DNA from: a virus
Taxonomy: Duplodnaviria; Caudoviricetes
IMG/VR virus record: IMGVR_UViG_3300044712_000786
Coordinates: 64,001-128,000 of that record
Reading direction: 5' to 3' (one strand)
Length of the DNA stretch: 64,000 nucleotides
A program made the position numbers and the translations under genes. This document shows, piece by piece, positions 21,410 through 21,678 of the stretch. The notes beneath the pieces were generated by a model. It was not told the DNA's origin. It made no database searches and saw only the letters and a list, made by a program, of their open reading frames with translations. Each line of letters starts with the position of its first letter. The stretch's first letter is position 1.

Positions 21410-21678
21410 ATAAATTCTAGGCTATTAGACTTGCTCCGCTTAGTTATGTATTCCTAAGCATTCTAGCTTCGGGAATTACCCGTCATTATCTAATTCTTTC
21501 CCGCCGAAGGAACAGACAGCATTAACGTAGCTGCCTACACGTTCGAAATTCTGATTGACTTGCGGGGGGTTAAACATAAGCAAGGTAGCTACTCCTCACT
21601 CATGCCGCTTATAGTCGGGATTCCTCCCAATGGGTCTACCCGATTCGCCAGCCGCCAATCAAAGCTGACTTGCTAGCT
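21410..21678 (-). ncRNA. Unidentified structured RNA (~265 nt) heading the tRNA transcript
   Basis: Promoter TTGACT-N16-TAGATT (21679-21712) with no ATG at +1; stems GTCAGC/GCTGGC, GGGA-GGAA-TCCC, GTAGCTACCT/AGGCAGCTAC, CGGG-TAATT-CCCG, GCTTAG/CTAAGC. Confidence 0.6.

Follow-up and report, generated by a model that had tools for sequence, protein, structure and literature searches.

The tRNA genes of large phages are interspersed with many RNAs that lack annotation. The species 1 and 2 RNAs of T4 (rnaC and rnaD) are stable non-tRNA RNAs that are co-transcribed with tRNAs. The dimeric pre-tRNAs of T4 are processed by RNase P (PMC11143913), and GOLLD and ROOL are structured phage RNAs of unknown function which often lie near tRNA islands and for which a role as decoy or scaffold has been hypothesised as well (10.1101/2024.12.08.627333). 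The candidate RNA analyzed here resembles these two in being a structured phage ncRNA of unassigned function that adjoins tRNA genes, whereas its length is approximately 260 nt, many GOLLD RNAs exceeding 800 nt, and it is not known to be widespread or multimeric. With the T4 species RNAs it would share the release of a non-tRNA RNA by tRNA-processing enzymes, but it is about two-fold longer and possesses neither a tRNA-like 3' end of its own nor a CCA. It is probably a real non-coding element, albeit a weaker one than first described, and represents a probable orphan structured RNA of the phage tRNA transcript, outside every catalogued family tested.

The source genome is that of a complete phage of 202.7 kb (approximately 203 kb) with direct terminal repeats, recovered from rhizosphere and soil metagenomes; the window analyzed is a stretch of 64,000 nt comprising bases 64001-128000, and positions refer to this window unless given as genome positions. 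No cultured relative of the phage was found, the terminase reaching at most 28% identity. Among the listed sequencing runs that contain the sequence, none is an RNA run, which has no bearing on expression. The region consists of short minus-strand genes in clusters, each headed by a TTGAC(A/T)-16-TAnnnT promoter, which is the dominant promoter class with 52 minus-strand sites as compared to 3 plus-strand sites in the whole genome. The preliminary description had proposed a structured RNA at 21410-21678 that starts at a consensus promoter without an ATG. Both features were confirmed: a sigma70-type phage promoter (TTGACT-16-TAGATT with extended -10 TG) is located at 21712-21685 on the minus strand, its predicted +1 at approximately 21678 agrees with the proposed 5' end and corresponds to nt 1 of the RNA, and the first AUG, at nt 76, begins a frame of 4 codons. 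The candidate heads a gap of 625 nt without ORFs. Directly upstream of the promoter lies a 46-aa gene (21716-21853, minus strand) from an unannotated family of approximately 60 distant members.

At the 3' side the proposed extent had to be revised, as the conserved boundary is found at approximately 21420, not 21410. This boundary derives from the relative X6, in which changes begin at 21419, and it gives a candidate structured ncRNA of approximately 259 nt (21420-21678, minus strand) followed by a variable linker (21410-21419) of which a part can pair with 21351-21358; the conserved 3' half thus ends 10 nt before the tRNA body. The next unit on the same strand is a tRNA-like RNA of 188 nt (21222-21409) with a 7-bp acceptor stem, a canonical T arm, a 114-nt insert in the D loop (21390-21277), an abnormal anticodon loop of 9 nt and G3-C70, which was detected neither by ARAGORN with default settings nor by Rfam, and it is followed by tRNA-Leu(UAA) with encoded CCA (21127-21215). 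The tRNA-like RNA is interrupted between GGU and AGAGC, carries a U discriminator and lacks an encoded CCA, and its D-loop insert starts with AUUCGACGG, which resembles the tmRNA D-loop consensus. Downstream of tRNA-Leu, in the early region, a gene of the Destabilase family (i-type lysozyme-like) is present (20492-20884, minus strand). The co-transcription of the candidate with the tRNA-like RNA and tRNA-Leu that had been claimed is inferred here because a terminator-like site is absent between the promoter and the tRNA-like RNA.

The non-coding character of the RNA had been made to depend on its internal 33-aa ORF (MFNPPQV...; 21476-21577, minus strand) not being conserved and translated. The AUG of this ORF lies inside a predicted 13-bp helix, the sequence GAGGAG 14 nt upstream is likewise paired, and the indels present in X6 frameshift the ORF and leave 8 codons. 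Examined as a small protein gene, the ORF showed neither a conserved frame nor an accessible start and, judged by the predicted fold and the relative, is not credible as a gene; the description of the element as non-coding was upheld.

Folding of the minus strand gave an energy of -83 kcal/mol (z = -1.83; 9/200 shuffles) and a z of -2.1 for 21420-21678, while the plus strand behaved as random sequence (z = +0.29). Stability alone proves little because, among 30 random windows taken from this genome region, 4 had z values of approximately -2 or lower; the folding is only modestly above chance, and its z, equal to the level of the apparent GTPase-centre look-alike RNA of this phage, is unexceptional for the genome. 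At least five clear helices had been described. Four hairpins and one long-range stem are indeed well predicted, with pair probabilities of approximately 0.75-0.96, although the overall stability is modest. These are a hairpin at nt 49-64 with a GGAA (GNRA) loop (21615-21630; probability 0.9), a 13-bp hairpin at nt 73-106 which sequesters the AUG and GAGGAG of the 33-aa ORF (21573-21606; 0.96), a 9-bp hairpin at nt 141-167 (21512-21538; 0.89), a 7-bp hairpin at nt 219-242 with the loop GAAUACAUAA (21437-21460; 0.93) and the stem between nt 36-47 (21632-21643) and nt 198-210 (21469-21481; approximately 0.77), all on the minus strand. The C-UUCG-G tetraloop of the preliminary description had to be abandoned: its closing pair has a probability of 0.0, its formation has to be forced at a cost of approximately 7 kcal/mol, and X6 reads UUAG at this site (nt 173). 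Furthermore, alternative folds lie within 1-7 kcal/mol of one another, and the 5' 32 nt and the middle of the molecule have rival structures.

Divergent relatives were found only in two short soil contigs, X5 and X6, of depth 3-4, in which single differences may be errors, and the contig comparison was confined to the covered parts of X4-X6. X6 spans 21377-21607 and differs by 14 substitutions, six of which are not listed, and 4 gap positions. Across the 86 nt of 21420-21505 it has zero listed changes, followed by 3 in the next 4 nt. Its listed changes are grouped within the linker nt 107-114, at positions 128 and 173 and directly behind nt 259, all in linkers or loops and none in the firm helices; as they amount to approximately five independent events, the chance of such a distribution is approximately 0.1. 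In a two-sequence consensus, which was fitted to both sequences, the listed changes are likewise all unpaired, and a helix 120-134/183-197 and a hairpin 167-181 are added. X5 is identical to the phage over 21418-21542, and the hairpin at nt 219-242 is identical in X5 and without listed change in X6. Past 21418, X5 continues with a stretch of 28 letters resembling the 5' half of another tRNA, one not present in this genome; the RNA therefore looks like a tRNA-preceding module, although the junction rests on these 28 letters and could be chimeric. Comparison of the two relatives thus suggests that the RNA is a conserved module which ends at approximately 21420 and is placed before a tRNA gene. 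No compensatory change or covariation was present in X5 and X6.

Searches for further relatives gave an identical copy at locus L258. DNA-pattern scans of viral, metagenome and genome contigs yielded matches that, where inspected, were all due to chance, and no homologue was found by blastn in phages and plasmids. The RNA was absent within the flanks examined both in terminase-linked relatives (approximately 55% identical and mostly fragments) and in relatives identified via the lysozyme, DUF932 and the upstream 46-aa gene. A covariance model built on the 3' half as its single sequence matched only the RNA itself among 30 virus records and 21 loci; the best other match, at L080 14444-14584 (E = 0.17), was rejected as an AT-rich hairpin array. 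A distant homologue was thus found in none of the collections searched, unlike for widespread families such as GOLLD. Moreover, Rfam covariance models gave no match at gathering threshold or at E values up to 10: the families singled out by the preliminary description for cmscan, namely RNase P, 6S, tmRNA and ribozymes, were all without match, as were SRP RNA and small ribozymes at E up to 10, the GOLLD model (RF02032) had no match in the genome at E up to 10, and ARAGORN detected no tmRNA. A look-alike of SRP helix 8 was dropped. No description of the RNA was found in the literature searched, apart from the 10,000 candidates of a catalogue of viral structured RNAs (PMC10690425), which lay outside this search.

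Following this, we propose that the element is a stand-alone stable phage ncRNA of an uncatalogued family, the first unit before the tRNA-like RNA and tRNA-Leu, a reading to which we give an even balance of confidence. The claim of a structured ncRNA at the head of the tRNA transcript is supported by the promoter of the dominant class in front of the ORF-free gap, the lack of a credible ORF, the firm helices which the listed X6 changes avoid, the near-invariant 3' half in two relatives and the X5 module before what reads as a different tRNA. On the other hand, the relatives are two contigs of depth 3-4, six X6 substitutions are unlisted, the X5 junction may be chimeric and the z of approximately -2 is shared by random windows. 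The standard phage promoter would give rise to a precursor consisting of the RNA, the tRNA-like RNA and tRNA-Leu, from which host RNase P, by the established processing of tRNA operons, would free the RNA by cutting where the tRNA-shaped body downstream begins; the freed RNA may then lose its variable tail of 10 nt by trimming. By analogy, the RNA might act in trans as a decoy or scaffold that binds host or phage proteins during take-over, in the manner of the phage's other tRNA- and rRNA-shaped RNAs, with three T-loop-like GCAAGUC motifs as candidate contact sites; this decoy step is weaker than the stand-alone reading as a whole. The RNA is small enough for direct synthesis, probing and pull-down.

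These motifs correspond to the three occurrences of GCAAGTC noted before, which were verified with starts at 21673, 21563 and 21434 (nt 6, 116 and 245) on the minus strand: copy 1 at 21667-21673, copy 2 at 21557-21563, without listed change in X6, and copy 3 at 21428-21434, which has a T-loop-like context and can pair with 21339-21346 of the D-loop insert. At least one 7-mer was present in triplicate in 1.3% of the shuffled sequences and, of 753 genome windows of equal size, in 42 (5.6%), so that the triple GCAAGTC is a mild excess over chance. The sequence UGCAAGUC serves as a T-loop variant in several of the phage's own tRNAs; around the three copies, a G-C closing pair is present only at copy 3 and a full T stem at none. 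In the phage tRNA cluster (genome 132800-151000), most T loops are non-standard (UGCAAAU, UGCAAGU, AGCGUUA) as opposed to UUCGAAU, and several of the tRNAs escape ARAGORN with default settings.

The tail of the RNA is complementary to the insert of its neighbour, which would be needless for a purely independent RNA. The RNA may accordingly be a cis-acting partner of the interrupted tRNA-like RNA, its 3' tail pairing with the D-loop insert: this could be a switch during transcription by which folding and processing of the cloverleaf are delayed or, after RNase P cleavage, a clasp; we regard this as rather unlikely. In the predicted fold of the full precursor, nt 245-252 (21434-21427) pair with 21346-21339 (8 bp, probability 0.99) and nt 259-266 (21420-21413) with 21358-21351 (8 bp, probability 0.9), and the hairpin joining the RNA tail and the insert also sequesters the 5' acceptor strand; a precursor constrained to the cloverleaf is 9.6 kcal/mol worse than the free fold. 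The duplex of the last 31 nt with the insert reached -26 kcal/mol as compared to -17 kcal/mol for shuffles (p = 0.003), whereas pairing of the whole leader with the insert was not significant (p = 0.22). Additionally, the transcript contains four copies of CUUGC, the complement of the repeat core (p = 0.002 for this particular word and 0.05 if any word is allowed). The predicted pairing could be a folding switch, a two-piece clasp or the trace of an inverted duplication, and an old duplication of this kind would yield equal complementarity. X5 retains the RNA although a different tRNA-like 5' end comes next, and in X6, whose coverage ends before the partner strand, the second helix is altered at 3 of 8 bases; both contigs argue that the pairing is not obligatory. 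The suggestion that the RNA has a processing or guide function thus gains from the tail-insert pairing (p = 0.003) and loses from the silence of the ribozyme and RNase P models and from X5, and a stand-alone module is favoured over a dedicated guide because what looks like a different tRNA follows the RNA in X5.

For the clasp variant in particular, in which the cleaved 260-nt RNA would be held through its GCAAGUC tail to the 114-nt insert as a two-piece RNA of approximately 450 nt, our confidence is low. If it is true, a non-decoding tRNA body would deliver a large structured cargo domain; no description of such a clasped two-piece architecture was found in the literature searched. The clasp would resemble two-piece tmRNA in that a tRNA-like piece is base-paired to a second piece, but the neighbour, in contrast to tmRNA, lacks G3-U70, an A discriminator and an encoded CCA and possesses a full D stem.

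That the transcript is a non-functional long leader, or the remnant of decayed tRNA-type genes with the three T-loop-like words as relics, appears quite unlikely. It would be in line with the z of approximately -2 in 4 of 30 random windows, with the 5.6% of genome windows that hold a triple 7-mer and with the lack of a distant homologue, but such a leader would hardly show 86 nt without listed change in a contig that differs in the adjacent linkers, nor a 13-bp helix and a promoter of its own. Degenerate tRNAs around the three words were considered and dropped, as T stems, D arms and acceptor stems are absent there.

An apparent copy of the 23S GTPase centre in this phage prompted a test for mimicry of rRNA. 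We consider it decidedly unlikely that the RNA is a free-standing look-alike of 23S domain I, a decoy that would engage ribosomal proteins or a defence nuclease; such a look-alike would be composed of the H7 tip, the 3' strand of H5, H8 and the H10 loop, and a large insertion would take the place of H9. Nucleotides 1-50 align with the segment from the tip of H7 to H8 in Priestia and Ralstonia 23S with a score of 39 (p = 0.005-0.01, relative to shuffles scored on full 16S and 23S in a comparison that was chosen post hoc), so that H7-H8 of some bacteria is approximately 70% identical to it across 48-50 nt, and the 9-mer GAAUACAUA of the H10 loop is present in the loop of the hairpin at nt 219-242. 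However, the similarity is not significant for E. coli 23S alone, a sequence profile of 23S from 10 species found nothing at the site, and a covariance model of H5-H10 from 13 species, the structure of which was validated, scored the site at 3 bits, below dozens of chance matches in the window. Besides the shared H7-H8 similarity and H10 9-mer, the partner strands of domain I are missing, namely the 5' strand for both H5 and H7 and the counterpart of the kink-turn, and the hairpin resembling H8 is predicted with a probability of 0.15. Look-alikes of 23S H71 and 16S 920-945 were dropped as not significant. If the clasp or the rRNA decoy were true, it would extend the known RNA architectures or the list of ribosomal sites that phages copy. 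The apparent GTPase-centre copy itself, at genome 149590-149860 (minus strand) outside the window, has ends that resemble the 23S uL11/GTPase centre around a large insert, with a z of approximately -2.

YrlA RNAs carry a 5' motif GNCGAAN0-1G and are encoded within approximately 4 kb of Ro60 on the same strand (PMC4201824). The phage genome encodes a DUF2828/DUF7788 protein, and the RNA might be its large Y-RNA-like partner with GGCUG/UAGCC as handle, which we hold to be very unlikely. Pairing of GGCUG (nt 26-30) with UAGCC (nt 255-259) would give a closing stem that ends precisely where conservation ends and lies beside a near-match of the YrlA motif; the stem probability is 0.47 for an RNA beginning at nt 26 but 0.003 in the full-length RNA. 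This near-match, GGCGAAUC, differs from the YrlA motif by a single base, the last one, and GAGCAA after the 7-bp hairpin comes near the stem-plus-ACAGCAA handle found elsewhere in the genome; neither motif is exact, however, and the loose YrlA motif occurs approximately 100 times per strand. The protein gene lies 68 kb from the RNA, in contrast to the approximately 4 kb of YrlA and Ro60, the YrlA model (RF02553) gave no match, and internal tRNA-like T and D stem-loops are absent from the predicted fold. The likeness to YrlA/YrlB (RF02553; PMC4201824) thus consists of a near-match motif, a possible closing stem and the presence of a DUF2828 protein and tRNA-shaped RNAs in the genome, whereas the stem-loops, an exact motif, a nearby gene and a model score are lacking. 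The DUF2828/DUF7788 protein gene is located at genome 153877-155352 (minus strand; L007 9880-11352) with an ACAGCAA hairpin upstream, and four further ACAGCAA units are found at genome 143075-143260.

Finally, it is most improbable that the transcript is an mRNA for the 33-aa peptide or a tRNA-processing ribozyme of RNase P-like or group I type, since the 33-codon frame, although present, is frameshifted in X6 and its start sequestered, and since UAGAUAAUGAC and AGAAUGCUUA, two short words that resemble RNase P CR-IV and CR-V, respectively, and occur in the right order, were dropped because neither a P4 helix with bulged U nor a P1 closing helix could be drawn (stems of at most 5-6 bp), the RNase P models A and B (RF00010, RF00011) had no match at the site, the group I intron model (RF00028) gave only a weak match elsewhere in the genome, and no Rfam ribozyme was matched at E up to 10.

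The genome of this phage is unusually rich in RNAs shaped like tRNA or rRNA. Three promoter-led, ORF-free gaps of the window that end in GC-rich hairpins (15020-15300, 25060-25369 and 24500-24769, minus strand) have folding z values of -3.5, -2.3 and -0.5, respectively, and no Rfam match; the first two are good ncRNA candidates. At 56893-57077 (minus strand), a tRNA-shaped RNA carries an insert of approximately 110 nt that separates its anticodon arm from its T arm. Outside the window, a circularly permuted tRNA-like body composed of T arm, closed acceptor stem and D arm is located at genome 144870-144935 (minus strand), and a tRNA-like RNA in which a long insert replaces the anticodon loop at genome 142578-142731 (minus strand). 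In the related phage L080, the lysozyme and DUF932 genes flank a promoter-led tRNA-like RNA (12877-13087, plus strand) whose anticodon loop has 5 nt and whose variable region contains an insert of approximately 125 nt, while L078 encodes, on the plus strand, a Pistol ribozyme (9911-9975) and then a D-arm-less tRNA-like element together with an atypical tRNA (10255-10395).
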